NCBI RefSeq assembly: GCF_037042905.1
Contig: NC_087245.1
Location: 6,016,001 to 6,080,000 of the forward strand
DNA from: Lytechinus pictus
Lineage: Eukaryota
DNA length: 64,000 nucleotides
Reading direction: 5' to 3'
Part shown: positions 580 through 56,769 of the stretch, piece by piece
How the letters are laid out: the number at the start of each line of letters is the position of its first letter
How positions within the stretch are numbered: the first letter of the stretch is position 1
Notes under the pieces: generated by a model
Told to the model about the DNA's origin: nothing
Databases searched by the model: none
The model's input: the letters and a program-made list of their open reading frames with translations, nothing else
Translations under genes and position numbers: made by a program

Positions 580-1263
580 TCTTTTTCATAAAATATTGCT
601 TAAGTTTATAATTTGATATCTTTGTTATGTGTTATCAGATTTTGATGGAATTTACGGCATTTGCTGTGTGAACTTTGCACCTTTTTCAGATATAATCACT
701 TTCTTTATTTATTTATTTATTTATTCAGTTTTATTTAAAAACAGGGTAGTCCTTTCAGAGCCCAAAGGCCTGCTTTACAAAAGAGCCATGTAGACATAGA
801 AAGATTTACAAAATAAATGAAATACAATTAATATAAAGTAAAATACAATACACAATCAAAATTACATGACATATCAATGATATCACATTAAATGAATCAA
901 AACAAAAATTAAAAACCTAGATTAAAATCAAGACAGTTTAAAAGACGAACAAAATCATAGAAATAAAGGAAATTACTTTAAAAACGTGTGACTAAAATTA
1001 AACTAAGTAAAATTTATAAATAAGTTATAAAATTGACAATTTAAAAAACTTTGAAAATTATTGATATAAAATGGAATAAAGCAGGTAGCATACAAGGACA
1101 AATAATAGAACAAAAGGTAAAATGAATCAAACAAAAAAATACATAAAGTATCACAAATACATAAAACCAAAAAGAAAAAAAAAACGTCACGATAACATCA
1201 AAACAAAAACAAAATAAATTAACATCATGGCAAAAGACATTATAAATAGGACCAGTGCATGCG

Positions 1264-4200: not shown

Positions 4201-4391
4201 AAGGGCAATTCTTGAAGGATACAAATAGGACAACTCCAATTTTCAAAAAGTTCTTTTCCATCATTGTATACAGATTGGGGTACATTGGCACACGTAATGT
4301 GAACCCAATTTTTACAGTTTGTACAGAGAAGGGCCTTCTGGTTGCATTTTACTGGTTTCTTGCAACTTACACACGCATACTTAATTGTCAT
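1264..4391 (-). pseudogene. LINE ORF2: PHD finger + APE endonuclease + reverse transcriptase, disrupted
   Basis: ATG at 4391; CVSC..CTNC..HITC..CPIC; HLNVRSL, SETW, GDFN, SDH; YRPISLL, DLKKAFD, QGSILGP, YADD. In-frame TAA at 2307-2309 joins ORFs 2307..4475 and 1041..2303. A 1-nt frameshift near 1372 restores SYIAPNIYNNLP...LLF* ending at 1264. Confidence 0.92.
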
Positions 4392-4589
4392 GAAACAAAT
4401 AACATGAAATATACTATGAAACAAGAAGTTTAATAACGAAAAATGAGCGTCGTTAACCAAAATCACATAAAACAAAATAACATGAATTTAAAATAAAGAA
4501 AACAACAACATTCAACAAAGACAAAGCTATTTGACAATAAACACCACGATTTACCTCTAGCTTTGACAGTCTGTATAGAGTTCGAGTGT

Positions 4590-5405
4590 TCAGTTTACTT
4601 TGGACAGGTCCTTTTCACTGGCAATAGACACCTTTTCGCCGTTTGGTTTTTTGACAATTATTTTACCATCTTGTGTCCAGAGTTTGTAATCATTGCTTCT
4701 GAGACTTTTCTTTACTTTCCAATATAGTTTATTCCGCTTCTGTGTTAGGCTTTCATTGATATAAATATGCTTTGACTTACTCGATGACTTTCGCAGGTTG
4801 AATCTAGCCTTGTAGATGGAGTCTCTCTTCCGATAGTTCGTGAATTTTACGATGACGTCCCGATGTTGTTTGCGAGTTTTCTGTCCTTTGTTGTTTGGGC
4901 TCCCGAGTCGGTGGCATCTGTCGACGTCGCTTTCATCGATGGTTACCCCGAGGTCCTCTTTACATATGTTCACTATTTTCCTCTCCACGTCCTCGTCTTG
5001 CGTCTCGTTGATACCAGCAAAGATTAGGCAGTTTCTTCGAGAGTACTGCTCTGCTTCGTCCATGGCGTCCTCGACGACATCTACTCGTTTTTCGAGCAAC
5101 GCCATTTTGTCGTTGGCGTTGTCAATGTCAAATTTCAACGAGTCTCTCACTTCCGATCTCAGAGATTCACATATCTCATCCAGCAGCTTTGTCTTGATAG
5201 CCGAAACCAGCTTAGATATAAAATTCTCATTGGTGAGTAGTTTATCGATGGCTGCTTGGATAGCATTGGATAGTGTGGAGTCGTCGCCGTCAGTGTCGTC
5301 ATTTTGGGCAGCAGAGTTGTCAGCGGGAGACGGACGCTTGGGCTTAGGGGAGTTATCGGCCAACGATCCCCCCTTTCCTCGTCTTGGTCTATCGGGTCCA
5401 CCCAT
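4590..5405 (-). CDS. LINE ORF1p (coiled coil + RRM, L1/Transposase_22-like type)
   Basis: Intact ORF from ATG 5405; motifs EQYSRRNCLIFAGINE, DRCHRLG, VIVKF, IYINESLT, WTQDGKI are typical of this ORF1 class. Confidence 0.88.
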   Translation of the reverse strand: MGGPDRPRRGKGGSLADNSPKPKRPSPADNSAAQNDDTDGDDSTLSNAIQAAIDKLLTNENFISKLVSAIKTKLLDEICESLRSEVRDSLKFDIDNANDKMALLEKRVDVVEDAMDEAEQYSRRNCLIFAGINETQDEDVERKIVNICKEDLGVTIDESDVDRCHRLGSPNNKGQKTRKQHRDVIVKFTNYRKRDSIYKARFNLRKSSSKSKHIYINESLTQKRNKLYWKVKKSLRSNDYKLWTQDGKIIVKKPNGEKVSIASEKDLSKVN

Positions 5406-8379
5406 AATGGTCAAGATTATCTGGACAATTGTTAATTGTATGCTTGGCGGAGGCTTCGTCACACACGTCCGTTCATCCCGACGTCAGCCCGGAATACCCT
5501 TAAAATGAGATCCATTACCTTTTTAGAACTGCGTTTTCTTATTTCGGAAATTAGTTAAATAGTGAATTATACTACCTTGTAGATTTTGAAAATACCCTTT
5601 ACCAAAATGTTTGGGGATATACCCCGATCCCCCGACCCCCGTCGCTCTTGTCTAAAACTTAATTTGTTCACTCTGTGCCTTAATAGACAAACAACTATTT
5701 TGAGTGGGTTTCAGACCGATTTCCGCCATTGATTCAGAGGAATGCAATATTCCACTCTTTATTGTTTGAATATCTTTATCGTCAACAAAGTATGTCGTCT
5801 ATGTAGTTAGCAACACACCCTAACGTTGGATGTGCATATGACAACTGGAATTGAAGAAAACAAAACACTTGTCTCGCCAGCGCCCCGTTGCATAAAAGTC
5901 ACCGTTATGGTAACTTTGCCATCCAATGGTAACTATCACGGTAACGATGATCAACAGCCAATCCCTAATATTATGGATATATCATGCATTGTCATTATTT
6001 TTTCTAATACGGAAATGTACTACCTTACCACCCACTCTTCAGTCTAACCCTGTTAGTTCTCGATACCCTGATTGTCTCCGTGCATGCACGGAGAGAAGGT
6101 GCGCCAAATGGCACACATTTTTTACCGAAAGGCATACTGGTAATTGACAAGCAAACACGATATACATATTCAAAGATATTACAAGGGGCAGATCGGACAC
6201 TTCTAAAAGGCGATGTTTTGAAACGCTCGATAAATGCTCATGGGAAGGGCGCCATTAGCGTTGAGTAAAGTAACCATCGCATATCGGCACATCGGCTGTG
6301 CATAAAACATAAGGAGGAATGAGAGAGGGGATTCCGGAGAGGGCTCAAGGGCGGCGCATGGGAATAACTCCACCTTTTATTACCCATAAACCTCTGAAAT
6401 ATATTAATCTTTAATTTAAGGGAAAAATGATTTAAAAAAAATGAATGTAAAAATCGTCTATTGTGACCCTCACCATTTTATATGTTTTGTACACAACCAT
6501 ATCGCGATACGCAAAGGTAAAAAAAAAGGTCGATACTCATCGCTGTACTTGGGCGCTCTTTCTAAGCGTTCAAGGCCCAATATATAGGGCCTTGTAAGCG
6601 TTGTGAAGTGCGCATGTAATCCAAGCTATGTGGGGAAGTTACAAATTGATGCAGAGGTTCGAGCCCCGGTCACGTCTTTCGGTCCCAGACGTAAATAATC
6701 ATATCTGATTGATACACGTCTGACAAAACTCAAATACACACACATTCATTGTTTCATTGCGCGCTCTCTGTACTGTCCGATCTTCCCCTTAGTATCTTTG
6801 ATATATTGCAAAGTGATAAGGAAATTTTAAGCATTTTATTTTAAATTAAAACAACCATGTTTAGTTTCAAATCTATTTTGTTTAAAAGTTCGACATTGTT
6901 AAATAATTTTCTAAACGAGTCAAGAATAACTATTAGTAAGGACAACAAATCAGACTGTATAGGCCCGAATAATTTGTACGGGTTTGGAACATTCATTTGC
7001 ATTTTGGGGCAATAATAGTCGTATATACATTATTCCTTCTCCGATGTGTCTATTCATATGTATGCACTTTTCTATCATACCAAGGGAGCAAATCCACATT
7101 TTTGAAAAATATCAAGCTGTGGTCCATGCGTTATACCTCTGAGGTGACTAATATTACTATCCCATATAGCTCTATACGGGGAGAGTAAATTTACTCTGAC
7201 ATTCTCAGCATGGTATATCCATATAAATCAAATCTTAAAGTCAAACTTTGAGGACTGCCTCGAATTTTTCTGCATAAAGCAATATAAATTATATCTAATA
7301 TATACAATGTGTATTTTTTTTTAATTCAAGATATATTTATAGCATTTTGTTTACGTGTTTTTCTGTGTTCATATATTAAAGAACTGTTGCTGGGCTGGCG
7401 CCATGAGCGTCTTCGGACGGTTTGTGCGCTCTTACAACCAGCTGTGATATAATAGGGAAGATGGCGTGCTTCATATTCAACAAATTAGTACCTTTACATC
7501 ATAATGGTTTGTTTTAAAGAAATCGGAGTCCCATTCGACCAGAAGAGTTACAAGATCGTTTAAAACTTAAAAAAAGTCACTCAGGTAAACGCAGGGATTT
7601 TTTGGGGGGTTGGTGTAAATCATTGCATAAATTTTTACTTAATCATTTTTGGGAATGTCTTGATGATTTCATATCTTATGTACCCAAATAATTATTGATG
7701 CTGAATATTAGATGTCCATTGAAACTAATCAGAGACAAAAACCTTCACTCGGGGTTGATATTCTGGTTGCTAAATGAAAATTTCTATCAGTCATTTTGTA
7801 AAACCTTCAGGTAATTTTTATCAACACACATTTATCCATATAAAAACGATAAACATCGTGAGAAGACGGGGTATTTTTATCCATGTGACAGATCTCGGAA
7901 ATCGTATTCTCAACAAAGGGGAAGATAGCTATGATTATGCATAGGCAACAAATTCTTAAAGGCACGCATTGTATTTTTTTATCGCTTGAAGAATCATAAA
8001 AAAAATGCTATAGTCACACCACTGGAACTGACTCCAGACCGATCAAAGCTATTTCAAATGGTATATCATTGGTTAGTTTGGATCCAGTATGCGTTGGTGT
8101 GTGACTGAGGCAGGAAGTCATTTGAGGCTGTTTAACGTTCGTAGAGCACGCCATCACATTCCTATATTTATATATCATGTTTGGCTTTCATCTGCCCAAA
8201 CATGTAGGAAACTTACCGTCAAAATCTTACCACTGGTCAGGGGCGTCGATCCATTTTTCAGATTGGGGGGGGGCAAAATCATGAATCGTTCTAAAGGCGC
8301 TCGATCACACCAAACAAACTCACCCACACACACACACACACACACAGGCCTAATTATATATATATATATATATATATAT

Positions 8380-8815
8380 AAATGTGTGAAGTTATACATG
8401 TACTACAGCTTTGGCAACTCTTTTATATTTAAATATTGTGTGAAAGAAATGGATGAAGAGAACAATGGTATGCGTAGCTTAAATCAAGGTTCCCCAGAGC
8501 TATCTACCCTTTTTGGAAAAATTGGTGATGCCGAAAAAATGTCTCTGCCGGGAATCGAACCCGGGCCCCCAGCTTTGAACGCCGGTGCCTTAACCACTAG
8601 ACCACAGAGACGGGTTAGTGGCTAGGGCGACCACGATCCAATTGACCGTCAGATAGACAGATTTTCGACACCATACCAATTATAATTTCCTTTGTCGGGT
8701 GAAGGTGGGTTTTGAACAATGACAAGCCGCCATGCCTCAGTTGGATCAAAGCTATTGCTTTGATACAGTACACGTATGGGAGAAAGTATACAAATGTGTG
8801 AAGTTATACATGTAC

Positions 8816-10459: not shown

Positions 10460-12767
10460 CAATGGCGGATCCAGGGGGGCACAGGGGGCGCACGCCCCCC
10501 CCCCCGCCTACTATTTGAGCGGCGCCTTCAAAAAAATAAAAGAAAAGTAAAAGAAAGAAAAGGCGCCGCTTAAAAAATAAAAATAAAGGAAAGAAAAGAA
10601 AAGGCGCCGCTTAAAAAAAATTTACACTGATATAATATTAGCAACAGTAAAGGAAAGACTATCCCCCAGCAAAGCACAATCATATCATCTTCCTTATCTT
10701 TTCTTTTAACTACCCTTTTCCCAACAACTTCGCCGGTTAAAAATAATCAGCAGTGCGCTGCCTGCATATAACTGGCGCCAATCAAGAATAATCAGCGCCA
10801 CCTAAATCTAAATCGGCGCCAGACAAGAATAATCAGCGCCATTTGGTTATAAATCGGCGCCAGTCAAGAAAAATTGACACTGCCAGAGTCTTAACCGGCG
10901 CCGATCAAGGATAATCAGCGCCACCTAAATCTAAATCGGCACCGGACAAGAATAATCGGCGCCATCTGGTTATAAATCGGCGGTGCCTGAGTTCTTAACC
11001 GGCGCCGATCAAGGATAATCAGCTCCACCTAACTCTAAATCGGCAACGGACAAGCAAAATCAGCACCGCTGATCAAGAATAATCAGCTCCGCCTAAATCC
11101 AAATCGGCGCCACGAAAGAACGATCAGCACCATCTGGTTATAAATCGGCGCCAGTCAAGATTAATCAGCGCCCCCAGGTTCTAAATCGGCGCCGGTAAAG
11201 AAAAATCAGCGCTGCCTGAGTCTTAACCGGCGCCGATCAAGAATAACCAGCGCCACCTAAATTTAAATAGGCGCCGGTCAAGAATAATCAGCGTCCCCTG
11301 GTTCCAATAAATAGGCGCCGGTAGAATAATGAAGAAGGGCCTATTGCCAACCAAATCTAGATCGGCGCCGGTCAAGAATGATCAGCGGCACCTGGTTATA
11401 CATTTTATTGTTGAATGGTCATAACGAATAACAAAGCTTATCGCATGCCCTTACAAAGTGGACTGGGGCGGGGCAGTTGCCCACAGATATCATGAAATCT
11501 TTAATTTCTTATTTAAAAAATCCCAGAATCATACAACAGTGTAGAGCAAATCCTTTAATTTTGATCTTATTTTCCAATGCTTTGATAAAAAAGTCAGACG
11601 GTTGCTAATACCGGGAGTGTATACTTACGCAACCAGACGTACATGTATATCCGTTAGACCTTAAACCACTAAATATAATTTTCAATGTATAAATACAGTT
11701 TGTCGATACCTTTGTTTTAACGTTTAAATGTTTACGCCACAAAATTTGATTTATTTTCATCTTCCATTACGTTAAATATTATTCATCTGATCACTCAGGA
11801 AGAAGTTAAAAACAAAGATAACGATACCTGTAAAACTAGAAAACTATTTCCAAAGCTCTGTCTTGAAGGATCTCTTTCTGAATTCAGGTCATAAGCATCA
11901 TATCCAGTTTCATCAAAGTAATTAGATAAAAATTACTCATCATTACAAATTTCATTAGATTTAGTGAAAAGCATCACAATATATATATAAATACCAATTT
12001 CTGTATGTAGGCCTATACATCATGTACATGAAAATTGAATGATAATATATAAACCTGGATTGGTGATGTATTCCAAATGATTCATGATATAGTCTCATTG
12101 TATATATATAGTAAAACAAAACTTGTATCTCAATTAATATACAAAAGTATTGGCCTCATCGCAATAAAAGGGTTGGTACACGAGATTGTGAAATCGCACA
12201 TAACATGCATAATTTGTATTACTTTTTGCTTGTTTCTTTCTTTAATAAGTTTTTCAATCTCTCTCTATGTATGTTTTAGAAATATTATATGTTTAAATTG
12301 ATATTTTCTGTTATAATGAGATATGTTTCAGTGGATTTCAGGGAATGGTCGTACGCAGCAAGGGGGAAGGGGGGCAAATTCCCGATCAGCTGTTGTGAAA
12401 ACACATTTTTCCCTCAACATTTCATGAAATCTACGAAAAATGTGCAAATGTGAGATGTACACCAAATACTTTTATTACACTTGTAAAAAAAAAGAAATCG
12501 CCCCATTGAGCAGTTCGGTCCGTTTACTCTATCGTTTTTTTTTTTCAAAAATATGTTCGAGTCTTGCCCCCCCCCCCCCCCCTTGCGTGTGGTCATGCAA
12601 AATGGCATGAATGGAAATCCTACATTTTGAAAAGAGCATTTGACAGGGTCAGACTTTACCCCTTTTTCAACATTTTCTTTTATGGCGCCGTTGAAGTGCA
12701 AAAATATGTGCGCCGCTTGGCAGTACGCCTCCCCCCCCCCTTTCGCCAAAAGCTGGATCCGCCTATG
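10460..12767. mobile_element. Non-autonomous TIR DNA element with 5-bp TSD
   Basis: TIRs CAATGGCGGATCCAG / CTGGATCCGCCTATG (13/15); ATCTG at 10455-10459 and 12768-12772; no transposase ORF. Confidence 0.8.
10740..11400. repeat. Minisatellite, ~41-bp unit (CAAGAATAATCAGCGCCACCTAAATCTAAATCGGCGCCAGW and variants)
   Basis: About 16 diverged tandem units rich in GGCGCC, inside the TIR element. Confidence 0.9.
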
Positions 12768-37619: not shown

Positions 37620-37622
<3 letters not shown>

Positions 37623-38623
37623 AGCCGAACCGACTTTCTTTCCTGACGAGCTGGTTCGTTTCGGCTGCAATATACAACCAGTTGATGTAAAGTCCGTCTT
37701 TCTTCACTTCTGACTCTTTACTCCTTCACAATATCTTATATCATATCTCGTGGAACCGCACAACCATGTTGAAGACCGAATACCCAGCATTCAGTATTTC
37801 CGTAATTTCAGTATCTTGGTAAGAACTTTCAAGCATCCTCACTCATCTCGGAATCTCGGTAAGATCAGTAATTCCCGTCTATTCTCTCGACTCAGTACTT
37901 TCCGTATCTTCTCTCGAGTCAGTATTTTCAGTATCTCAGGAAAGTCGGTATTTTCCGTACTTCAGTAAAGTCAGTATTTTCCGTACTTCGGTAAAGTCAG
38001 TATTTTCCGTACTTCTCACTTTTTCCAGTAAGTACTTCCAACACTTTCGTGCTTCTGCTTTTCAGACCATGCATTCTGTAGCTCCGTACTCAATATAATG
38101 ACAGGCATGAAAACGAAGTATTTCTTTCTTCAAACTTTACTAGAATACATGCTTACCCTGGCGCAGCAGGATCAAACAGGACTTGAGCAGAGTTTCAGGC
38201 AGAAATTACTACTTGTAGGCCTAATAGCCTGGTTTGTGATCGAGCATAAAGAAGACCTATATTGATCTAGCTCATCGATTGAGGAGGGAGCTTGTCAGGC
38301 CATACAATTTTATCACTATTTAAAAATAGTTAAAGTCATAGAATAAATCTTTTCAGTAAGACAATGGTGATTGTCACTTATTTTGTGTATCCAAACAGTG
38401 TGAAATTATTAAACATAAAGAGCTAAAACAATCATACAGTTGTAAACTTCGATACTTCTCAGCAAAAAGGCATAATTACATTTTTACAGAAAATCACCAC
38501 ATAATCGATTACAAGCGATTACTGAATTTCGCTATACAACTATAAATATGGGTTAAAAATTATTCTAGTCTTTGTCGTTCCAAAACAACACTGATAATTA
38601 AATAAACCTTTCATTTCGTTACA
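37620..38623 (-). repeat. 3' LTR
   Basis: TGTAGCC...CGTTACA; 3 substitutions versus 45759-46762 by manual comparison; three ~26-bp tandem units at 37941-38015. Confidence 0.97.
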
Positions 38624-38638
38624 CAACTCCCTCCTTCG
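38624..38638 (-). other. Polypurine tract
   Basis: GAAGGAGGGAG on minus, 3 nt from the 3' LTR. Confidence 0.8.
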
Positions 38639-39021
38639 AAAAGCTCGGTCCCCGAGCTGTCCAATTTCCTAGCAAAGAAACACTTGCAAATTCAGTTTCT
38701 TTACATTTTGTAACAATTCCATAAGAAATTATCATGTTTAATATGAGCAAGATAACCACTCCGCATTTTCTAATTTCAAACTTCCTATGGATATAACATT
38801 CGAGATGATTTTTTTTTCCTTCCATCTGAGTTTGTAAACAATATTTCTAAAGATGAACTAAACTACATACAACTTCTATGTACACAAACGTTAACATCAT
38901 CATACATTAAAAGGCTACAACAAACGATGCAGAATTTTCTTCTCAAGAGTCCTTTTCCGTTTTGTTTAATTCTGCATTTTATGCAAGAGTCTTTTGAGAG
39001 TCATTTTCAGTTTATATAGAA

Positions 39022-39768
39022 TTATGGTTCATCCGGCACTCTTTTGATTTCTTCTGTGAAAATTTCAACGAGCTCTCCTTGTTTGGTGATATATCTTTCA
39101 GTTTTACGTGTAAGGATCACATCTCTGGGTATTTTGATGGATGATGTGGTATACTCCAAAACCGATCCCCCATCATGTCCAGCTTCCCTCAGCTTAGCTG
39201 TCAGATTCCTGACGCGCTTCCGGAGTTCTCCGTCTTCCTCTGTCTGGCAACTGGCGTCGCAGCACCTTGAAGGAGTCTTCTCTGCAGATCTAAATCTTTG
39301 GTGAGATTTCCCTCGGTCGTTCCGATGAGAAGATTGAGGTGTATTAGATGCGGGTGACCGAGAGCGGCTTCTGCTTCTTCGTCGAATGACACTTCTTACA
39401 GACCTTTCCGGACTTCTTGATGACCTAGGTGCTGAGTGGGAATATATTCCGCTATCCCTAGGAGATCTCGGGCTCCGGTGTCGGAATGGTGACCTGTCTA
39501 AACGGGACCTAGATTCCGGAGTGTGAACTGGAGTTTTTCCATACTTTCTGGTTGGGACTGGCTCTGCATGGGTCGCTTCATGTTTTTCCAAGTCGCCCTT
39601 CCTTCCACATCTGTAATCGCATTTGGTGCATCTGAACCTTTTCACATGACATTCCCGGTGATGGCGATTAAGCTGTGCCAGTTTCTCAAACGTTTTGCTG
39701 CATTCCCCACAGGAAAATTCATTGTGTGATACTTTGCTGGAAATGCTGATCTCGTCGTCACTCACCAT
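39022..39768 (-). CDS. Gypsy ORF3: two C2H2 zinc fingers + RS-rich region + short coiled coil, 248 aa
   Basis: Open from ATG 39768; FSCGECSKTF..L..H....H and FRCTKC...L..H...H; RSPRSP, RRRSRSRSRSP; lies between the pol stop and the PPT. Confidence 0.85.
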   Translation of the reverse strand: MVSDDEISISSKVSHNEFSCGECSKTFEKLAQLNRHHRECHVKRFRCTKCDYRCGRKGDLEKHEATHAEPVPTRKYGKTPVHTPESRSRLDRSPFRHRSPRSPRDSGIYSHSAPRSSRSPERSVRSVIRRRSRSRSRSPASNTPQSSHRNDRGKSHQRFRSAEKTPSRCCDASCQTEEDGELRKRVRNLTAKLREAGHDGGSVLEYTTSSIKIPRDVILTRKTERYITKQGELVEIFTEEIKRVPDEP

Positions 39769-39968
39769 CTTCTGCAATAAAAATTGGAGAAGAGCATAAA
39801 ATTGGTCATAATTCTGGGCCCGAAATTCGATTTAATTTGTAGCGTGAAACAAAACAGCTGAATTTCATATTCTTCATCTTATTTTACATCTAAACGACAG
39901 AGTGCATGGTCAAAGCAGAAATACGTTTGTTGTTGGTGAATAATCAATCAACTGTGGTCGTTGTAAGT

Positions 39969-42900
39969 TTAGTTGTTATTGGTTGTTCTGAATTGCCATA
40001 CTGGAAGCTCAACACCTTGGTATTTCTTCATGCGATCTGCATGGACCACAAGTGGTAGAGATCTAGGAGATTGTTGAAGACGAAATGTGACAGCAGAGAG
40101 CTTCGAAACGATAAGAAACGGTCCGAGCCATCGGGGTTCCAATTTTGGAGATACTCCTTTTTTTCTAGTTTTCTTTCTGAGCCACACATATTGCCCCACG
40201 TTGAAGTCGGCCTCGGATGCCCTTCTGTTGTATAGAGTGCGTTGTCGGCTTCCAGCATCCTTTAGGTTTCTTCTTGCTCTTTCATGTACTGTCCGTAGTG
40301 TATCTCTGAGATTGAAGGCGTAGTCAGTATTAACTTCTTCATCTAGTGGGGTGGGCGGCATTACCAGATCTATTGGTAAGGTGACTTCTCTTCCTAGCAT
40401 AAGCATGTTCGGAGTTTCTCCAGTGGACTCTTGAGGACTGCTCCGGTATGCTGCTGTGGCAAAGGGGATATATTTATCCCAGTCACGTTGATGCGACTCT
40501 GAATCCATCATAGAGGCAACCGTGTTGAGAAGAGTCCGATTAAATCTTTCAATTAGGCCATCGGACTTCGGGTTATAGGGCGTTGTCCGAGTCTTCTTTA
40601 CACCCATCAGGCGGCATACCTCTTTGAATACATCCGACTCGAAGTTTCGGCCCTGGTCAGAATGGATGACTGAGGGGACTCCGAATCTACAGAGGACTTC
40701 CTTCACTAGCTTTTCTGCCACGGTGTCGGCTCGTTCATCAGGTATAGCAAATGCTTCCATCCATTTAGTGAAATAATCCCCAACAACTAAGACATATTTA
40801 TTGCCATTTGTAGATTCGGGTAACGGACCAAGGATGTCTAGGGCTATACGGTCCATTGGAGATCCACTTATTTGTTGTTGCAAGGGTGCTCTGGTATGTA
40901 CTCCGCTAGCTTTTCTTTTTGCACAGATGTCGCACTGGCGTATTCCAGATCGGAAATCTTCTGTCATCCCGACCCAGAAATACTTCAATCGTGCTTTCTC
41001 GAGGCACTTCTTGATGCCGAAATGGCCTGCGGTAGTAGCTGAATGCATTTCTTTCACCATCTCTTGTACCATGACTCGGGGCACCACAAGTTGCCACCTG
41101 GTTATTTCCCCATCACTTGACTCCCACCTGCGGTAGAGCACTTCATTCTTGATGTGTAGTGAATCCCAGTATTCTAAGAGACGCTTAGCTTCTCTTGGCC
41201 AGGCAGATGTTTGGGCATCGCTTGGTTTCTGCCCATCCAGTTTGGCCTGTACTACCGGCTTGATCCCGACATCACTTCTCTGTTGGTCTTTGAGTTCTTT
41301 TTGTTCTTCCTCAGTATCAACTGATAATATCCGTACTTGTTCTGGATCTGAGTCTGCTTTGCTATCTTCACGCCCGCACTGCTTACATGGTCGTCGGGAC
41401 AAACTGTCTGCATTACTATGGTTCCTTCCAGGTCGGTGAATGATGTCCATGTCGTACTCTGAAATAACCTCAAGCCAGCGGGCAAGTTGTCCGGCGGGTT
41501 CTTTGAAACTTGTCAACCACCTGAGAGATCTGTGATCGGTTCTCACAGTGATATGACGTCCATATAAGTACTGGCGAAAATGTTTCAAGAAGATGACGAT
41601 GGCAAGTAATTCCTTCCTAGTGACACAATAGTTTCTTTCAGTTTTCTTGAGTGTCTTGCTTGCGTACGCAATTACTTTCTCTTGCCCATCCTGGATCTGA
41701 GACAAGACTGCACCTACTGCAAAATCACTAGCATCAGTGTCCAGAATCATCTGTCCATCGGGCTCAGGGTATGCTAATATGGGCTAAGTGGTGAGTCTCT
41801 CCTTAAGCTGATCGAAAGCTGACTGGCATTCTTCTGTCCAATCAAAGTGTCTGTTCTTTTCCATAAGCTGATGCAAAGGTCTGGCGATCTCTGCAAATCC
41901 CTTGACATAACGTCGGTAATAGGATGCTAAACCCATGAAGCTCCTGAGCTCTGATACAGAAGTTGGGTAATCCCAGTCACGTACAGAGCTTATCTTCTCT
42001 GGATCTGTGCTCACACCTTCAGCCGAGACGACGTGTCCGAGATATCGTACACTTCTACAGAACAGATGACACTTTGATGGTTTCAGTTTAAGGCCTGCTT
42101 CTTTCAGCCGTTGGAATACCATTCTCAGCCTTGTCAGTTCTTCTTCTATTGTTCTGCCATACACGATGACATCGTCCAGATACACAAGCAAGATCTCCCA
42201 CTTTAAACCGGCTACCACTCGGTCCATCAGCCTTTCAAACGTGGCCGGCGCATTACATAGCCCGAAAGGCATAGCGCGCCAGGTATATAACCTTCCATTC
42301 GCGAAGAATGCAGATTTCTGTCTTGCCTGTTCGTCCAATTCCACTTGCCAATATCCACTGGCTAAGTCTAATGTGGAGAACCACTTCGCCCCGCCTAACG
42401 CATCTAAGGTGTCACTTATTCTTGGTAGCGGGTAAGCGTCTTTAATGGTGCTAGCATTTAGTTGGCGGTAGTCAACACAAAACCGCTTGCTTCCATCCTT
42501 CTTGGATACCAACACTACATTTGATGCCCATGGGCTAGAAGTAGGTTCTATCAAACCATGTTGCAGCAAATCCTGAACTTGCCGTTCAATCTCTTCCCTC
42601 TGTTGGGCTGGATATCTTCTATGTGCTTGTCGAAACGGTGGTGTATCTCCGGTGTTGATGCTATGCTGCACATAGTCAGTTCTCCCAATATCAAACGAAC
42701 CCTTCGAAAAGATATCACTGAAGTCCCCTAGTAACTGTGATATGGATTCCTGATATTCTACTGGGACATTCTGCATGGTTCTAGCGAATAGATCAGTCAG
42801 GTGTTCTGGTATGCCAGTCGTAGGTTGTTTACCACATGAGTCCAGGCCCGTGGTTTCCTCTTTCTTCAGAGATGTCATACTAGCTACACAAGTTCCTTTC

Positions 42901-43437
42901 TTGATGACTCTATGTTGTTGGGTTGTGTTGAGAATCCGTACAGGGAGGATCTTTTCCTCGGCGCTTACAACAGCTCGTGCAACCATCAAACCTTTACCGA
43001 GTAATTCCGTACCATCTCGCGGTCCTTCCAGTAAAGCCGAACCACTAAGGAACTGAGTGTTCCTAGCTTCGCCTGGTAGAATGACTTCACAGCCGGCCGG
43101 AATAGTACTTGTTTGCTGTGCAACAATTCTACAGCAAAATGAATTCCCTTCGTGATCTTGGCATGCTATGGTTCCCTTCGGAGTTCTCAACTCCAACATT
43201 CTGAGATCTAGTACCACATTCATCTGGATGAGTAAGTCCAGTCCAATGATTCCTTGATTCTTCAGCGCAGCTACTATGACTTCGGAGGCCGCCGCCATAC
43301 CTCCAATTTCTAAGACGATCGATGCTCTCCCCATTGTTTCTAGCGGTGAACCGTCTGCCTGGTAAACCATGTCTGTAATTCTACGAAGAGGAGGTCTCCT
43401 TGACTCAATGATGTTGCCGTATACCTCGTTTGATACT
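39969..43437 (-). pseudogene. pol: Gypsy pol (rest of protease, RT, RNase H, integrase) with one premature stop
   Basis: RFCVDYRQLN, LDLASGYWQ, MPFGL, YLDD; DTDAS, TDH; HHCC, LDILGP, SDQG, ERFNRT, GPF. In-frame TAG at 41784-41786. Confidence 0.95.
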
Positions 43438-44270
43438 CATATCGAAAACTTGCATACAGTGTACCGGACATGTAAAAACATAGCAGACGACGTTTGCAGA
43501 CCTCGCGATCATCGTATGACTAGTGGTGTAGAATGTTCCATTGTGGCTTTATGGGGGAGATAGCATTACAGAGGGATAAAATGTATACACAAATAATGTT
43601 TCAGCGTTGATTCGCAATATTTTGTGTCAATTTCATAAATTATCGTTGTTTGAACGTTTAAAACATCATTATGAAGTGAAAGGATTAAGCAAAACTTTAT
43701 TTTCAGACTCACCTATACAGTGGTAAGCTAGGATGCACCCCTCGTATACATAATGGACCCGTCACGAGTGTAGGTTTGCTCTTCGGATATCACTATCACA
43801 AAGAAAATCTCCTCTGATTTGATGATAAAAGTGCACTATTTCCTTATTAACCAATCTCCATGGTTCTTTCATGAGTATTTGCCTTACAATCTGCCCTTTA
43901 TTATAATCTGGGCGGAAATTCTTGATACCATCATCCGCCGATGTGACGACGGATATAATCCTACCGGGTACTATAAAAATGCCCCCCAAACCCATTATCC
44001 CAATACATATTCCTGACTATGGATGGTTTTGAGTGGTTTTAATGTAATAAAGTGCCATATTTCCCACCAGTTGAATTACAAAAAAATTATAATCATCTGA
44101 TAGAAGAAGTTGTTAACATTCATTTCAGGGGGGCGGAAATTCTATATGAATCAACGCTTGTCCTTGATACACATTTGTTTGTGAAAAAAGGGTATGATGC
44201 AAGGAAATTCTGCGTGTTATAAGTGTGCGCGCGTGCAGCGAGGACCTTCTGTCCGCTAGTTTTCCATATG
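43438..44270. mobile_element. ~833-bp TIR insertion interrupting the Gypsy protease
   Basis: TIR CATATCGAAAACTTGC / GCTAGTTTTCCATATG (14/16); splits DTGSSHT from VSNEVYG. Confidence 0.85.
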
Positions 44271-45717
44271 GAGTATGTGAAGAACCAGTATCTATCAGAA
44301 ATTTTACTGACTGCCCGTTAAGCTTCGCATTAACGAACAAACCCTGTCTCTTGGCATCCTCTGATGTTCCAACTCTAGCCTGGCCGGGTTCAGGATTGTT
44401 CTCTCCTAAATTTCCGTCATCCGGCTCTTGCTCTTTATTACTGACTTCTTCATGGATATCATCCGTGTTGGATTCAGATGTGATCATGGAGACATGAGCA
44501 TTTGACTTTGGACAATTCTTGATGAGATGTCCCGTTTGGTTACAGTTGTGACATCGTCTCTCAGTAGTCTGATCACTTGTTTTCTCCTTCCTAGGATGTG
44601 GACACTTGTTAGCAAAATGGCCAGATTCTCCACAATTGTAGCAATTGTTGTTTTCCCGGTTGGTCTGCTGTCCAGCTCCATGAGATGCTGTATTCTGTCT
44701 TGGCCTTTCAGTAGTTTTGGATTCCATTTCCAGAATGAGATCTTTAAGGAACTTTTTCATTCTCACTTCCCATGAGGCTTCTTCAGTAGGGGAAGGGTTT
44801 CCGGCATTATCCCCTGAAACAGCTCGGCTGTACCTGGTTTGTCGGTAGTCCCTCCTGTCTCCTTCCATCCTTAGGAACGCCTCCGTATTCAGGGCAGCTT
44901 CTATTGCCTCGTCCAATGATCTTGGTTGCGAGCGAAACAGTCCTTCCCGAATCTTACTATCCATAATTGCATCTAGGAAATGCCCCCTCGCCAACCGGTC
45001 TTGTCCGTCTTCATCGAATTCGGGATAGGCGAGAGCCGTCATATCTCTAACACTCTGTCCTAATTCCTGGAGGGTCTCTTTAGGCTTTCTCCGTCTCTGT
45101 CGCAACTCGGCGAGATAGACTTCCGCTTTTCCACCTGGACCATATCTTTTTCTCATTCTGTCAACCAGTTCACAGTAACTCAGTCTTCTTCCCGTTTTCT
45201 GGGTTAGCAATTTAACAGCAGAACCTCTTAAGCTGGCTGCCAGATATTTCATCGCTTCGGATTCTCCCCATTCATTCACTACAATGCATGCCTCAAAATG
45301 GTTGATATAGTCTTCAACTGGCGAGCGACCATCGAACCGATCTGGTATCACATTTGGTTTCTTTGATCTTACATCAGGATAATTCGGTTGACTTGACAAA
45401 GGATTTTCTGATTCGGTTCTCAACTGTGCTGTTGGTCTGTGTTGTGTATTTGATAGCCTGGTTCCGTGAAATTCTTGTTCAAGACTAGTGGGTTGCGGTA
45501 CTTGTGCTGTTGCTCCGAAGTTTTCAATTGGTGAAGACTGGAACTGAACTCTTGGCCCTTGCCTACTGCTTGCCTCATCAGTCCCCCATGATGGCGTGAA
45601 CCCCACACTGGTTCGCAACTCCGCCATCATCTGGTCAATCTCCGCCATACTGCTTTCCAACCTCTCCATCACTTCAGCTGGCGATACCGCACGCCCTCTT
45701 TGTCCTCTGACATCCAT
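44271..45717 (-). CDS. gag: Gypsy gag with two CCHC knuckles, running in frame into the protease start
   Basis: ATG 45717 just after the PBS; PDRFDG..F..NEW..L.G.A; CYNCGESGHFANKC, CHNCNQTGHLIKNC; FLIDTGSS. Confidence 0.93.
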
Positions 45718-45738
45718 TTCTGAACTTCTACACCAACT

Positions 45739-45756
45739 ATCCCACTTCTGACACCA
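45739..45756 (-). other. Primer-binding site, tRNA-Leu type
   Basis: TGGTGTCAGAAGTGGGAT, 2 nt from the 5' LTR; complementary to the metazoan tRNA-Leu 3' end as I recall it. Confidence 0.85.
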
Positions 45757-45758
45757 CG

Positions 45759-46762
45759 TGTAGCCGAACCGACTTTCTTTCCTGACGAGCTGGTTCGTTT
45801 CGGCTGCAATATACAACCAGTTGATGTAAAGTCCGTCTTTCTTCACTTCTGACTCTTTACTCCTTCACAATATCTTATATCATATCTCGTGGAACCGCAC
45901 AACCATGTTGAAGACCGAATACCCAGCATTCAGTATTTCCGTAATTTCAGTATCTTGGTAAGAACTTTCAAGCATCCTCACTCATCTCGGAATCTCGGTA
46001 AGATCAGTAATTCCCGTCTATTCTCTCGACTCAGTACTTTCCGTATCTTCTCTCGAGTCAGTATTTTCAGTATCTCAGGAAAGTCGGTATTTTCCGTACT
46101 TCAGTAAAGTCAGTATTTTCCGTACTTCGGTAAAGTCAGTATTTTCCGTACTTCTCACTTTTTCCAGTCAGTACTTCCAACACTTTCGTGCTTCTGCTTT
46201 TCAGACCATGCATTCTGTAGCTCCGTACTCAATATAATGACAGGCATGAAAACGAAGTATTTCTTTCTTCAAACTTTACTAGAATACATGCTTACCCTGG
46301 CGCAGCAGGATCAAACAGGACTTGAGCAGAGTTTCAGGCAGAAATTACTTCTTGTAGGCCTAATAGCCTGGTTTGTGATCGAGCATAAAGAAGACCTATA
46401 TTGATCTAGCTCATCGATTGAGGAGGGAGCTTGTCAGGCCATAAAATTTTATCACTATTTAAAAATAGTTAAAGTCATAGAATAAATCTTTTCAGTAAGA
46501 CAATGGTGATTGTCACTTATTTTGTGTATCCAAACAGTGTGAAATTATTAAACATAAAGAGCTAAAACAATCATACAGTTGTAAACTTCGATACTTCTCA
46601 GCAAAAAGGCATAATTACATTTTTACAGAAAATCACCACATAATCGATTACAAGCGATTACTGAATTTCGCTATACAACTATAAATATGGGTTAAAAATT
46701 ATTCTAGTCTTTGTCGTTCCAAAACAACACTGATAATTAAATAAACCTTTCATTTCGTTACA
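45759..46762 (-). repeat. 5' LTR
   Basis: 1004 bp, adjacent to the PBS. Confidence 0.97.
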
Positions 46763-46949
46763 ATATATATATGGGATCATAGTTTCACCAAACCTCCGAT
46801 CGAAGACCGTATATATTTGATTTATATCCGTCATCGGAATTAAATACATCAGATAGTAATGTAGAATGAATAGCAATCTTGAAGAGACGATTAATTAATA
46901 CTTTTATTAGCTTTCATGTGGCCCCTGCATGGCTATCACATACGCGCTT

Positions 46950-52000: not shown

Positions 52001-55000
52001 AAATTTACTCCAGATAAACATATACAAAGAACTTCTACACCATTCATCCTTCTGTAAAATCAAATACAGGTTGGTATAGCCCCAGCCCTTGCTCTTTAGC
52101 TGAAAGCATATGTAACTAATTAAACATAAAAATTCTGAGTGCATATAATAATTCAATCAGAAAGTATTTGGTATTGAATTAAAACTGTGTTCAGAAATAT
52201 TGCAACATATTATGTAAGGGTACGTGTTGATATGGGTAGAAGTAATTGGGTATTTACACAAATTCAACATTTATATATTAATATCTGGGACAGGCCTAGC
52301 TTGACCGACCAGACAGGGTCCGAAAAACGAAACATGAATCGGGGCTCGAACTTCAGACCTCTCAACAAGTTTGCAACTTCCACGCGTAGCTAGCTCGTGT
52401 CTGGAGAATGATGACATGCAAATGATGTGCTGATTTTCATTACCTTTTATATACTGCAGCACATTTCAAGGACGAGAGGATTTGATGGGTTCAATCCAGG
52501 CTTGCCTTACAGCTAATCTTGGAAGGCCATTGATTATTCATGGTGTGTCCGGATCAGGAAAGACCTCTATCATGGGAATGGTAGCCAAACACAGCAAATA
52601 ATTTTTTGGAAGGAATTGCGTGACAGTTCTACGATTCCTTGGAACGTCAGTACAGACATCTTCAATACACATGACACTTCAAAGCATATGTAGACAGGTA
52701 GCTGACTCATCTGAAATTAAACGTTTAACAAGCTTTTTTTTTCATTTCCGTTTACTCATTGAAAGCTACTTAAAGCATTGGAGTAATTCAACCCACGAAG
52801 TATTCACATTTGCTTCTATAATATTTATAATTATGTCCGAAGTATTTCTTGTATTCTTAAGGGCATGGATTTCATAACCATATAATTATTTTTCATTTAC
52901 TTCAATCACACTGAAAACCTCTCTGAACCACCAGAACAAAGTCTTTTCATAAATAGCATGGGAAAGATCCAGTGTATAACTCACACAATCTTATACCAAG
53001 AATAAAATATTCGAATCCATCCAGAGCAACTGTAATTAGTGTGATAGTTGATTAATATACCCAGTGGATATTTCATGGATTCTTCTCATTTATTTTATCT
53101 AGATCTGCATTGCATATGGAGTGGAGCAACCTGCAGATGATCACCTGGATGATTTCTCAGAAACAGTTCAGACATTCAACAACTTGATCAGAACAGTTCC
53201 ATCCAAAGAAAGGTCTCTTCTATTACTCCTAGATAGCATTGACCAACTGGCTTCCAATAATAATGCTCATATGATGAACTGGTTACCCAAACACCTCCAT
53301 GAAAACACCCATATTGTTGTCTCCATGCTTGAAGAAGAGCACCAATGCCTTAAAAATATCAAAGTGGCTTTGAAGGATAACAGATGCTACATTAAAATGG
53401 ACCCTTTGGAAAAAGATAATGGTCTTGCAATCATGAAGAGTTTGCTAAAGAGCAGAGACAGAACACTGACGCGTGAGCAAGTCGACATTGTGACAGATGC
53501 CTTCATAAAATGTCCTCAGCCCTTGTTCTTGAAACTGTTGTTTGAAGAATTTGTGAGCTGGCCATCTTTCAAGAAGATAGAAGAGATAAATCTTCCTGGT
53601 AATATTTCTGAAGCTATATTGTCCTTGTTCAAAGATCTAGAAGATCGACATGGAAGACTCTTTGTAGCCCATGCTCTTGGTTATCTGACAGCAGGAAAGA
53701 GTGGTCTGACAGAAGCAGAGATAGAAGACGTCCTTTCGTGTGATGACAAAGTCCTCAATGATGTCTATCAGTACTGGGATCCTCCTGATGAAGACATTGT
53801 TCGAATTCCTCCATCTCTGTGGAAGAGGTTACGTCTGGACATTGACGAATTCATTACTGAACGTCAAGCAGGTGGAAAGACTGTGCTCGCTTGGTATCAC
53901 CGACAGTTCATTGAAACTGCTCAGAAAATGTATCTTGGCGACCCTTATACCAATGTAGCTAGGCACCAGCTACTTGCTGACATGTTTAGGGGAGAGTATA
54001 GTGATAGTGCTATCAAACCAATTACACTACATGGTCGTAAGAAGGAATTCAGAAAGGCTGATCGCCAAGCAGCAGCTCAACCACTAATGTTCGGAGACGA
54101 TGTTTTCAATTTGCGCAAGTTGCAAGAACTTCCATATCACCTCATGCAATGTACACCTGTAGATTGCTTTCCAAATGGTTTGATTAAGTACGTGATGTAA
54201 AACTATGAATGGATTTTAGCCAAGTTGAGAGCTTTAAGTTTAATAGAGCTTGTAGATGACTTCATGCAGTATGATGACGAGAGCGCTCTTCTGATAGATG
54301 CACTTTACCTCTCGGGGAGCAATATCAAGGAGGACCCGTTTGCATTGGCAGGCCAGTTAATTGGTCGATTGACTGACTTCGAGGATGTATATCCAAATAT
54401 TGGAAGACTTCTTCAAGAAGCCAAGTCCTGGATGCAAACAACTACTCTGTCTCTCATAATTCCCAGAGGTGCATGTCTTATCCCTCCTGGAGGGCAGTTA
54501 AAAGCATATCTTGCAGGTCATCCAAATAGAGTCGAGGCCATTCGATATGCATGTTCTGTAGGCATGCTTGTAACCATCTGTAAAGATAATGATGGACAAC
54601 CAATGGCAAATGTATGGGATGAACCAAAGATAGAACTCATTCACACCCTCGAGATAAAAGCTAAGCAAAAAGCTTCAGGTAAATTGACACTCGTTCTGAG
54701 CCCTGATGGGAAACATGTTGTCTTTGGTTGTCAAGTGCTTGGTGTGTTCGCTCTTTCTAGTGGGTCACTGGTTTGCAAGTTGGAAACTGGAAAGAACCAT
54801 GCTATCAGCTCATGCACGATACAAGAAGATGGGTGTCATGCTGTAGCTGGTGCAGAAAAGGGCACAAATGTGTACTTGTGGGATTTGAGAAATGGGCGAC
54901 TCCTGATGAGCTTGAATCATCCTGCAGCTGTTCATTTTACCTTTTTCGAAGGCAATTCTGAGATTCTGTCCGTCTGTCAAGATGGCCGTATCAGACGATG

Positions 55001-56769
55001 GTCAATCAATACCAAGGACTGCATTCACTGTTTTGAGGTTCATAGGGCTGGTGATATCAGGGAAGCAACTCGCTCAGCAATGAATAAGACCATGATCACG
55101 GGAAGTTACGATGGAACTATCAAGATATCAAGCTATCTCCATGAAGAACACAATTCAAGCATTACGCTCAAAGCACACAGGAAAGCCATATCATGCCTCT
55201 TGATTTTGTCAGAAAACCGACTTGCTTCTGGTTCTGGAGACTCTGTTGTTTACATCTGGGATATGGTGACAGGAATGGCGATATTGTCCTTCAAAGGTTA
55301 GTCGTAATTTTGTAGTCAATTGTCTCTCAGAAAGCTGTAAACCTGTAGATTTCTGCGTTTTTAGATAAATCTTCTGTTACAGTAGGTACATTGAAATAAT
55401 TTTTTTGTTAAAGAAGGTGCATCTACTTTATAACGTGCAAAATCTTATATGGAAATTAAATTATTATTAAGGAGTACGTTTAGAGGTTTTCCTCAAGACT
55501 GGAGATATATCCTCTTTATTTAATACATGTAGGTCATGTTGGGATGATCACATCTCTATGGTTTGGTGAAGCTGACCAGAGTGTTGCTGACTCACGAGAG
55601 ATTCTGGTAACTGGATCAAAGGATGATTGCCTGAATGTGTGGAGTCTGAACACTGACCACACTGAGAATTCTCTCATCACCTCCTTAGAAGGACATTCAT
55701 CATTGATTACATATGTAACAGGATCAAGCAGTCAGAAAATATACTCTGCATCTAATGATAAAAGTGCTAAAGTATGGGACTACAAACGAAATACGGTGAG
55801 CATGGCCTGGAAGTTGATTAGCTTTACACTAAAAAAAGAAAATATCACATCTAATCTCAGGCATTGTCGATCATTTCTCTTTCACATCACAGGTGATAAA
55901 AAGGGAGAGGCACAAAGAGCATGTATTTGGACTTGTCTTTGGACCTGACAAATCAACAGTCATTACGAGTGGACAAGAAGGAACTGTCAAGTTCTCAAGA
56001 TTCTCTGACTGCCAGGTGATCCGCCAAGAATCTGGGTTTGCATACACTCTCTTGATAAGCAGTGATGGCAAGAAGCTGATAGGTGGAATGGTCGATGAAG
56101 GCGTGGTCCGTGTATGGGATGTTGTTCAATCAGAGGACAGGAATAGTACATTCGATCTTAAAGGTCATGACAAGGATGTTCTGTGTATTATCCAAGGTCA
56201 TGATGACGAGATCATCACAGGGTCACTGGATACAACGGTTAAACTGTGGTCACTGGAATTAAAGTCTTGTCTGAAAACACTCGAAGGTAACTATGTGTGT
56301 CTAAACATGTAAGGGAAATCCAACCTTTGTGACAAATAATTTGCATGAAAGAAGATATGTGAAAGCATATCAGTGAAGGTATTTTTTAAGGTATGCCTAT
56401 TTGAAAACTGAGACCACAAAGGCTTTGTAAGTATAAATTTGGGAGCAGATTGGGATTGTGGTTGGGAAAACTCCCCCATTTGTCGTGTCCTAATTTATGA
56501 GCAATATGTGGTTTTCTCCTAAGCACCTTTCCACCAGGGAGGTTGTACAACATAAACAGATTCTTGTTATATTCCCTTATAAAAGAAAACATATTAATAC
56601 CATAACTTTGAAAAATATGACCATTTGAAATTTTTATTGGAACAAATTTTGAGTTTTGTTAAAATGGACGATTTTAAAAATTAATCAGAAATCAATTTTA
56701 GGTATCTATTTTACACTGACATAAACCTGCTTCCCTGGATATAAATCAAACAGTAGATTAATGTTGTAG

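Follow-up and report, generated by a model that had tools for sequence, protein, structure and literature searches.

We report that, in a contig from sequencing run X9, the LTR of a Ty3/gypsy retrotransposon of Lytechinus pictus is joined directly to the third open reading frame of the element, ORF3. The contig joins position 46296 to position 39771 and skips 6,524 nt between GT and AG (CT..AC on the plus strand), at a depth of 11. The joint had been predicted from splice signals in an initial annotation of the 64-kb window, the whole stretch of DNA analysed here, and it is present to the base in this one of the four runs examined. The library type of X9 is not on record, its depth pattern is cDNA-like, and the joint is very probably derived from RNA. 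As a tentative model, to which we give somewhat less than an even chance as a complete chain, we propose that a spliced LTR-to-ORF3 mRNA exists and that ORF3 acts as a nuclear, Rev/CERV-like regulator of the unspliced RNA of the element.

The element and its splice signals

The element is a young LTR retrotransposon on the minus strand. Direct LTRs with TG...CA ends, a primer-binding site (PBS) and a polypurine tract are all present (Table 1), and the two LTRs differ at three positions (46444, 46350 and 46169). The domain order is gag-PR-RT-RH-IN, the reverse transcriptase is nearest to that of Ty3, and the best solved relatives of pol are 4ol8 (E 5e-60) and the Ty3-G Gag-Pol structure 7q5b (E 5e-59). 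Because both flanks consist of TA repeats, a target-site duplication cannot be delimited. For pairing of the PBS, the tRNA-Leu end sequence was taken from the supplements of PMC13524379. Self-priming built by the splice was considered and rejected, the PBS being a plain tRNA-Leu site; its longest complement between 47200 and 37500 (10 nt, at 47061) falls beyond the element. Neither ORF3 nor the 833-nt insertion was found in a second copy in the 64-kb window, and near the element there is no tRNA gene and no Rfam family at gathering level.

Table 1. Features of the element, in coordinates of the window
Feature	Position	Strand	Evidence or remark
5' LTR, 1,004 nt, TG...CA	45759..46762	-	LTR-LTR comparison; TA microsatellite beside
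TATA-like TTTAAATA, putative promoter element	46456..46463	-	sequence
Predicted non-coding exon 1, 5' end approximate	46296..46430	-	last 23 nt (46318-46296) in joined contig
Donor AGG/GTAAGC inside LTR (GT 46295-46294)	46290..46298	-	sequence and joined contig
26-nt tandem repeats (family D7) within LTR and intron; speculative response element	46030..46180	-	
tRNA-Leu primer-binding site, lost in splice	45739..45756	-	first 12 nt pair with tRNA-Leu end
gag with two CCHC knuckles, and protease start	44271..45717	-	
833-nt insertion with inverted ends, splits protease	43438..44270	-	absent from X9 and X1 contigs
pol: rest of PR, RT, RNase H, integrase	39969..43437	-	broken by in-frame stop at 41786-41784
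Acceptor: TTATGAC word, pyrimidine tract, TTGCAG (AG 39773-39772)	39772..39815	-	
ORF3, 248 aa, intact	39022..39768	-	ORF translation
Two C2H2 zinc fingers, residues 20-67	39568..39711	-	Pfam PF00096, E 7e-07
RS/SP-rich disordered middle: 23% R, 23% S, 13 RS dipeptides	39265..39564	-	
Putative LC8/DYNLL-type motif D-x-x-C-Q-T-E, residues 171-177	39238..39258	-	position shared by 7 of 7 proteins
Conserved C-terminal domain: one helix and three strands	39040..39237	-	
Polypurine tract	38627..38637	-	
3' LTR, holds second donor copy (GT 38156-38155)	37620..38623	-	LTR-LTR comparison

The coordinates originally given for donor, acceptor and TATA-like box hold, and the skipped stretch comprises U5 and PBS as well as gag, the stop in pol and the 833-nt insertion. 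The acceptor AG lies 3 nt ahead of the ORF3 ATG (39768), with 40 nt upstream that contain no AG. In a related LTR variant, donor position +3 (place 46293) is G, which still gives GTRAG. According to a rough matrix of splice-site frequencies, the acceptor ranks first among 644 AG and the donor third among 407 GT on the sense strand of the element. Equal or better scores are reached in the window by 14 donors per strand and by 17 acceptors on the plus and 11 on the minus strand, and on the antisense strand of the element, which is rich in T, at least seven acceptors outscore the one of the sense strand. TTGCAG within 3 nt ahead of an ATG occurs at only 4 of the 2,716 ATGs in the window. By sequence alone the sites are thus only moderately special; the splice call rises above chance because of the exact joint in X9 and the same acceptor word in a distant relative, locus L001. 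A second donor-like word at 39765 (rank 2 of 407) would allow a 6-nt micro-exon; we set this option aside for now, since the joined contig continues unspliced to 38942 and L001 does not have this word.

Transcription would likely start some 30 nt downstream of the TATA-like box. The initial annotation had named a start downstream of the donor as evidence against the splice; sense LTR reads appear to begin upstream of the donor, at about 46425-46435, a rough estimate based on read thinning in the related LTR variant with only 7 and 5 reads. The spliced leader would then measure about 135 nt with two ATGs, compared to 6.7 kb and 148 ATGs in the unspliced RNA. Both ATGs open short upstream frames that had been noted before (46414, 2 aa; 46386, 8 aa, in a leader from about 46430) and that end before the donor. 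Leader and donor region together show moderately good folding (z -2.4).

The joint in the sequencing runs

Four of the 15 listed runs were examined; among the 15 no holder is recorded as RNA, which is uninformative either way. The joint was found in a single contig whose short side measures 23 nt, below the 31-letter bridging rule. The chance that a random deletion would produce this exact donor/acceptor pair is about 6e-8, and only one letter fits both sides. In X9 the depth is 11 over ORF3 and 3.2 over gag-pol; the bin of the acceptor has a depth of 1.67, the value expected from the exon side alone, and the depth between 40006 and 40557 is 0. At 46319, in the exon, about 7/17 of the depth is of the window type, while at 46293 and 46233, in the intron, the whole depth belongs to the diverged LTR variant. 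Window-type sequence thus seems to drop out at the donor. At the insertion and in the variant LTR, X9 has the same alleles as the raw RNA reads from runs X13 and X14.

Absence of junction reads had been named as evidence against the splice, and here the runs are divided: the X9 contig carries the joint, and the raw RNA runs X13 and X14, each covered to about 6% (91 and 43 reads placed), contain no junction read and no read from ORF3. At 46293 their sense LTR reads (9 and 3) continue past the donor without splicing, and most of them belong to the variant LTR. In X1 an unspliced contig spans the acceptor (39649-39989), and no joint is listed.

It had also been suggested that the window copy, although dead for transposition, could make ORF3. 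Its signals and its ORF3 are indeed intact, but the joined contig does not carry its private letters: it departs from the window copy at 39446 and at 39715, and at 46350 the letter specific to the 5' LTR of the window copy accounts for 0/17 of the depth in X9 and 0 of 7 reads in X13. For this reason we assign the probable splicing to the family; that the window copy itself makes the spliced message is rather doubtful. The insertion may simply be absent from the X9 and X13 animals.

The ORF3 protein and its relatives

RefSeq models of Lytechinus pictus annotated as “zinc finger protein” match ORF3 at 96-99% identity, and the ORF3 layout is conserved across seven proteins with approximately 28-64% identity. 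All seven have the two fingers and 11-17 RS dipeptides; in the five measured, an RS region of at least 100 residues is kept and the net charge ranges from +20 to +29. No hydrophobic segment was found in five proteins, the best 19-residue hydropathy of ORF3 being 0.37 (0.06-1.27 in four relatives). ORF3 is not an envelope, and the env analogy that was drawn initially appears to hold for the mode of expression and fails for the protein. Pfam recognizes only the C2H2 fingers in ORF3, with no RRM in either the Pfam scan or the structure model. A simple pattern for a leucine-rich nuclear export signal matched the last 85 residues of one of the seven proteins, which is not P0001; export might also proceed independently of CRM1.

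The LC8 motif has been described as [D/S]-K-x-[T/V/I]-Q-[T/V]-[D/E] within a disordered stretch (PMC3078936, PMC6607443). In all seven proteins the Q at position 0, position +1 and an acidic residue at -4 fit this pattern; position -3 is never K, and position -1 is C or S in four of them. P0001 has C instead of T/V/I at -1 and A instead of K at -3. The relaxed pattern was written after the alignment and occurs in 2-7% of shuffles. The C-terminal domain gave no Pfam match under E 0.01, no solved relative under E 0.8 and no Atlas match. Its best fold comparison among 48,161 chains has a Z of 4.5, and no viral fold was found at E 0.001 or better, which is not proof of a new fold.

In a profile search, all but five of the 150 best matches covered mostly the fingers and were set aside; two of these, upon inspection, were ordinary many-finger proteins. 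A metagenome scan for ORF3 returned three loci, namely L001, which is a true relative, an unrelated many-finger gene (L003) and a finger-only match (L002). L001 encodes a 35%-identical protein behind TTATGAC...TTGCAG-A-ATG, with an acceptor that ranks second among 115 AG and 61 AG-free nt upstream; its upstream frame does not align with the pol tail of our element. Conservation of the acceptor, another point raised initially, is thus seen as a recurrent TTGCAG in one distant relative with DNA, a putative retrotransposon gene. Viral contigs searched with ORF3, the C-terminal domain and the RNase H-integrase piece gave no match. No C2H2-RS ORF3 is described in the literature searched, which did not include Repbase and subscription journals, where an entry is possible. 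The zinc-finger/RS cargo of ORF3 therefore appears to be undescribed, while spliced ORF3 messages are known already.

A possible role in RNA export

How could such a protein serve the element? In our model, the LTR donor is joined to the acceptor just ahead of ORF3, as in the contig of very probable RNA origin, and the strong sites would make the spliced form the default. By comparison with retroviral biology, the element would then need a route to keep and export its full-length RNA. ORF3 could supply this route, with the fingers binding the RNA of the element, the phosphorylated RS region engaging splicing or export factors, and the LC8 site aiding dimerisation. The spliced message cannot be primed for copying, because the splice removes the PBS. 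If the model is true, broken copies could keep tuning the family, since the protein would act in trans and the message skips every gag-pol lesion.

Classical C2H2 fingers are mostly DNA-binding. With the splice taken as real, ORF3 might regulate transcription from the LTR, as activator or repressor, and use the RS region for localisation. The nearest structures to its two canonical fingers are DNA-bound, the transcription factor ASCIZ is likewise described as having an LC8 motif within a disordered region, and the 26-nt LTR repeats could serve as sites. We nevertheless consider this unlikely, as positions 2 and 3 of the finger 1 helix vary among the seven proteins and the long RS region points to RNA processing; moreover, two C2H2 fingers read only about 6 bp. 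Roles outside RNA processing, such as protamine-like condensing, particle trafficking or a counter to host silencing, would fit the strong basic charge, the RSP (SP-R-R) repeats, the LC8-type motif as a dynein link in seven of seven proteins, and the description of LC8 as part of the Drosophila Piwi silencing complex. To our knowledge this complex is not known from echinoderms. A separate spliced message would leave the amount of protein untied to Gag, and we regard such roles as unlikely. Finally, the X9 joint could reflect an artefact of the library, or DNA from a copy that was deleted or retroposed, with ORF3 made from an internal promoter or not at all. This is very unlikely, even given the unrecorded library type, the raw RNA runs and the internal env promoters of Oikopleura Tor3b/4b (PMC4402516), because the two ends of the joint coincide with the predicted GT and AG, retroposition of such a form would in itself demonstrate splicing, and X9 has neither window-type U5 nor anything upstream of the acceptor, both of which whole-copy DNA should show.

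Comparison with known systems

The splice mechanism as such is ordinary. Retroviruses, errantiviruses and Oikopleura Tor3a (PMC4402516) use an env-type mRNA to express a third frame past pol by one splice that removes gag-pol, as we propose for our element; the product of our element differs in having no hydrophobic segment. The donor, described near the gag start in Tor3a (PMC4402516), here lies inside the LTR, and it is therefore duplicated at the 3' end and its use would also remove the PBS. No env-carrying gypsy elements were reported in echinoderms, both Lytechinus genomes included (PMC13524379). Echinoderm gypsy elements, reported as env-less, still use the env-type slot.

The RNA-export model has a precedent in CERV of the C. 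elegans element Cer1, a Ty3/gypsy accessory protein made from a spliced mRNA and needed for export of genomic RNA, which is also a zinc-binding candidate with phosphorylatable Ser-Pro sites (PMC10309623). CERV has 517 aa, five exons overlapping gag and H/M/G domains, compared to 248 aa, one coding exon past pol and C2H2 plus RS in ORF3. The described domains make no homology evident, and the function is shown for CERV and proposed for ORF3. In the literature searched, CERV is the one protein-based case of spliced/unspliced balance in elements without Rev-like genes. The ORF3 family would add another candidate, apparently unrelated to CERV, from a deuterostome whose embryo is tractable, and it offers an exact junction to test and letters that distinguish its copies. 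HIV Rev resembles the proposed role functionally. SR and SR-related proteins share the RS-rich, basic, disordered region; ORF3 lacks their RRM, has fingers and is encoded by an element. In its fullest form the proposal is of an env-less Ty3/gypsy lineage with a circuit like that of complex retroviruses, in which the LTR donor would make the ORF3-only message the default and an SR-like, C2H2, LC8-clamped protein with a new domain would switch the family to keeping and exporting unspliced RNA; we consider this a possibility, yet a rather doubtful one.

Bdelloid LTR retrotransposons carry non-envelope cargo in the same slot (GDSL, DEDDy, coiled-coil and TM proteins), typically expressed through spliced messages (PMC5408684). 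These ORF3s are enzymes or membrane proteins, and no zinc-finger ORF3 appears in the text searched. The sORF1 of the Drosophila MDG1 group (10.1101/2025.03.14.642691) resembles ORF3 as proposed here: it is described as a small accessory protein of the nucleus, its predicted fold binds nucleic acid, and it has a short transcript of its own. It differs from the C2H2-RS protein in its helix-turn-helix, its location upstream of gag and its origin by early polyadenylation without splicing. Some RefSeq Lytechinus pictus models named “zinc finger protein 672/774-like” are, at the identity given above, matches to retrotransposon cargo.

Structure of the element and its splice sites

RNA-level splicing very probably occurs in the family of this minus-strand element, whose sequence marks it as a young Ty3/gypsy retrotransposon. 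Its LTRs, embedded in a TA microsatellite, differ at 3 of 1,004 positions. Pfam domains (gag with two CCHC knuckles, protease, RT, RNase H and integrase) follow the gypsy order, Ty3 is among the best solved relatives of the RT, and the PBS is complementary to a tRNA-Leu end tabulated in supplements of PMC13524379. As read from its sequence, the window copy is broken twice, by an insertion and by a stop.

Coordinates of the element, its lesions and the signals proposed for splicing
Feature	Position	Strand	Remark
5' LTR	46762-45759	-	1,004 nt
TATA-like word	46463-46456	-	
Donor GT	46295-46294	-	
Insertion	43438-44270		833 nt, inverted ends, inside protease
In-frame stop in pol	41786-41784	-	
Acceptor AG	39773-39772	-	
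ORF3 ATG	39768	-	
3' LTR	38623-37620	-	1,004 nt

The initial annotation had proposed that an LTR donor is spliced to an acceptor just before ORF3, skipping gag-pol, and all its coordinates hold on re-reading of the sequence, as do two short uORFs in the putative leader (start ~46430), both closed ahead of the donor. Scored on the element's sense strand with a rough frequency matrix, the acceptor ranks first of 644 AG and the donor third of 407 GT. In the window, donors with equally high scores number 14 on each strand, and such acceptors 17 on the plus and 11 on the minus strand, and better acceptors than that of ORF3 are present on the antisense strand of the element; the motifs are thus good without being unique, and sequence alone is insufficient for a splice claim. 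The acceptor region (39770-39760, minus strand) holds a tandem CAG-AAG, with a donor-like ATG/GTGAGT next to it at 39765, and ORF3 relatives within one cluster occur as MVSDDE and MSDDE forms.

Neither AATAAA nor ATTAAA is found in the LTR (37620-38623); the 3' LTR also carries a second donor, at 38156. Two ATTAAA (38970 and 38742) lie in the ORF3 3' UTR ahead of the 3' LTR, and an X9 contig continues from the PPT into the LTR despite this pair further up.

The ORF3 protein and its proposed role

RefSeq models of Lytechinus pictus named "zinc finger protein 672/774-like" share 96-99% identity and the start Met with ORF3, which makes Lytechinus the likely host. We compared the window protein (P0001) with six relatives (P0003-P0006, P0064 and P0169) in a set ~28-64% identical to P0001 in alignments. 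Two C2H2 fingers are common to all seven, as are a middle part rich in RS/SP (11-17 RS dipeptides), the motif [DE]-x-x-[TCVS]-Q-[TV] in one fixed position, and a C-terminal domain, which is cut short in P0004. No hydrophobic segment was found in the five proteins measured and no RRM in ORF3. The motif, a pattern composed after the alignment had been viewed, resembles the LC8/DYNLL site (PMC3078936, PMC6607443) and is a candidate of that kind. In the predicted structures (mean pLDDT 60 and 68) the two fingers are followed by an extended disordered stretch and, after it, by one helix and three strands; a fold search with these models gave no clear match.

The acceptor is kept in L001, a metagenome locus encoding a protein 35% identical to ORF3 and the only distant relative with DNA. 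Its ATG is directly preceded by TTGCAG plus one base, with TTATGAC at a window-like distance and 61 AG-free bases; in the window, TTGCAG stands this close before 4 of 2,716 ATGs. Upstream of the L001 ATG, at a distance of 228 nt, an open frame closes with a motif reminiscent of integrase tails; this frame gave no alignment with window pol.

Of 148 upstream ATGs the splice would leave 2, and it would take out the PBS, so that the product would be a translation-only message. With such strong splice sites the element would need a means of retaining full-length RNA, and the natural candidate for this would be a basic finger-RS protein translated from the spliced RNA, as CERV is for Cer1 (PMC10309623). 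By this analogy we tentatively propose the whole chain, LTR-ORF3 splicing with ORF3 as a Rev/CERV-like regulator of unspliced element RNA, which may well be right but which we would not quite call probable. That the 26-nt repeats within the intron (46030-46180) are the response element is speculation. ORF3, with its two fingers, might instead be a DNA-binding regulator of the LTR, which seems unlikely, and a role in condensing, trafficking or anti-silencing we consider about as unlikely.

Spliced ORF3 messages are known for env in Tor3a (PMC4402516), and PMC5408684 states them as typical and also catalogues non-env cargo. PMC13524379 reports no echinoderm gypsy elements with env. MDG1 sORF1, a nuclear accessory protein, is made without splicing (10.1101/2025.03.14.642691). 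PMC12440569, PMC12801592 and PMC8615465 contained nothing of relevance. Literature searches, with Repbase outside their range, returned no description of a C2H2-RS ORF3, and this cargo thus appears undescribed.

The joint in public sequencing runs

Four of 15 runs from a run search were compared with 38626-46900: X13 and X14 (raw RNA; ~6% of either run was read, giving 91 and 43 reads on the element), X9 (a contig set of unrecorded kind) and X1 (a contig set of a second organism, guessed to be RNA). The predicted junction was found exactly in X9, but in none of the other three. An 853-nt X9 contig of depth 11 contains 23 nt of LTR up to 46296 and continues with 39771-38942, skipping 6,524 nt; the CT..AC ends of the gap read GT..AG on the minus strand. 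A random deletion would strike this exact pair with a chance of ~6e-8, the two sides have a single fitting letter in common, and the 23-mer is confined to the two LTRs. The joint comes from one contig of one run with no library record, and its short side is below the 31-letter bridging threshold.

At the sampling stated, X13 and X14 gave no ORF3 read and no joint. Sense LTR reads crossing the donor unspliced at 46293 (9 in X13, 3 in X14) are mostly of a variant LTR, the donor of which has G at +3. Because internal gag-pol depth outside the insertion is ~1 or less in both runs, the abundant unspliced RNA lacking junctions that the initial annotation had considered adverse was not encountered. 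In X1, a contig spans the acceptor unspliced, and no joint is among those listed. The sense LTR reads of X13 and X14 thin out at ~46425-46435 (only 7 and 5 reads), as expected if transcription begins 30 nt below the TATA-like word.

Depth in X9 is 11 over ORF3 and 3.2 over gag-pol, dropping to 0. The acceptor bin has 1.67, exactly the value from the exon side alone, and depth is zero over the 550 nt of intron that come next. At the intron positions 46293 and 46233 the entire depth (9.94) comes from the diverged LTR variant. At 46319, an exon position, ~7 of 17 is of window type, so that coverage by such sequence seems to stop at the donor, which would not be expected of DNA with whole LTRs. 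These absences are soft, as contigs lose rare variants. X9 alleles at the insertion and in the variant LTR match those of the raw RNA reads, and from depth and alleles we infer that X9 is RNA. A DNA-level or artefactual joint we consider highly improbable.

The joined contig mismatches the window at 39446 and 39715. At 46350, the letter specific to the window 5' LTR is missing from X9 (0 of depth 17) and from X13 (0 of 7 reads), and the other letter occurs in 3 of 5 X14 reads; gag-pol contigs lacking the insertion are present in X9 and X1. The splicing evidence thus concerns sister copies. The window copy has its signals and ORF intact and might be expressed; it may be absent from the sampled animals.

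Additional observations

The diverged LTR variant (differences at 46233, 46293 and 46319) is transcribed in sense with the donor crossed unspliced (45526-46400; all four runs), and X9 and X1 have extra depth across the PBS and gag start; this is perhaps a sister or non-autonomous subfamily. X1 record 4, which joins RT sequence (42349-42676) to mid-LTR (46082-46333) in one contig, represents a copy with an internal deletion in the second organism.

The 833-nt insertion, whose inverted ends begin CATAT and around which no target duplication is evident, is best described as an unclassified non-autonomous DNA element; transcripts in X13 and X14 include its relatives, embedded in other sequences. 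A stretch at 47070-47050 (minus strand), ~300 nt upstream of the element, resembles a tRNA-Leu 3' end: 10 nt at 47061 are exactly complementary to the PBS, and no tRNA gene or Rfam match was obtained there.

The strand of the element also carries, 5.3 kb past the 3' LTR in the downstream direction, an intact single-exon rhodopsin-family GPCR ORF (32336-31128, minus strand). Among the 236 AG that separate the two, an acceptor-like site at 32532 scores best, so that splicing from the 3' LTR donor (38156) into this host gene is conceivable; alternatively, the first intron of the gene may contain the element.

A LINE-like element (1041-5483, minus strand) has an ORF2 opening with a PHD finger ahead of the endonuclease and an upstream ORF matching Baculo_FP_2nd. 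At 53103-55301 (plus strand), a NACHT/NWD1-like winged helix precedes WD40 repeats within a single frame that is interrupted by a stop at ~54200. Two tRNA-like sequences with TCA anticodon (99-169 and 8540-8611, minus strand), inside a duplicated block ~8.44 kb apart, are probably tRNA-derived SINEs, and 10733-11400 is an array of 41-nt repeats with GGCGCC cores.
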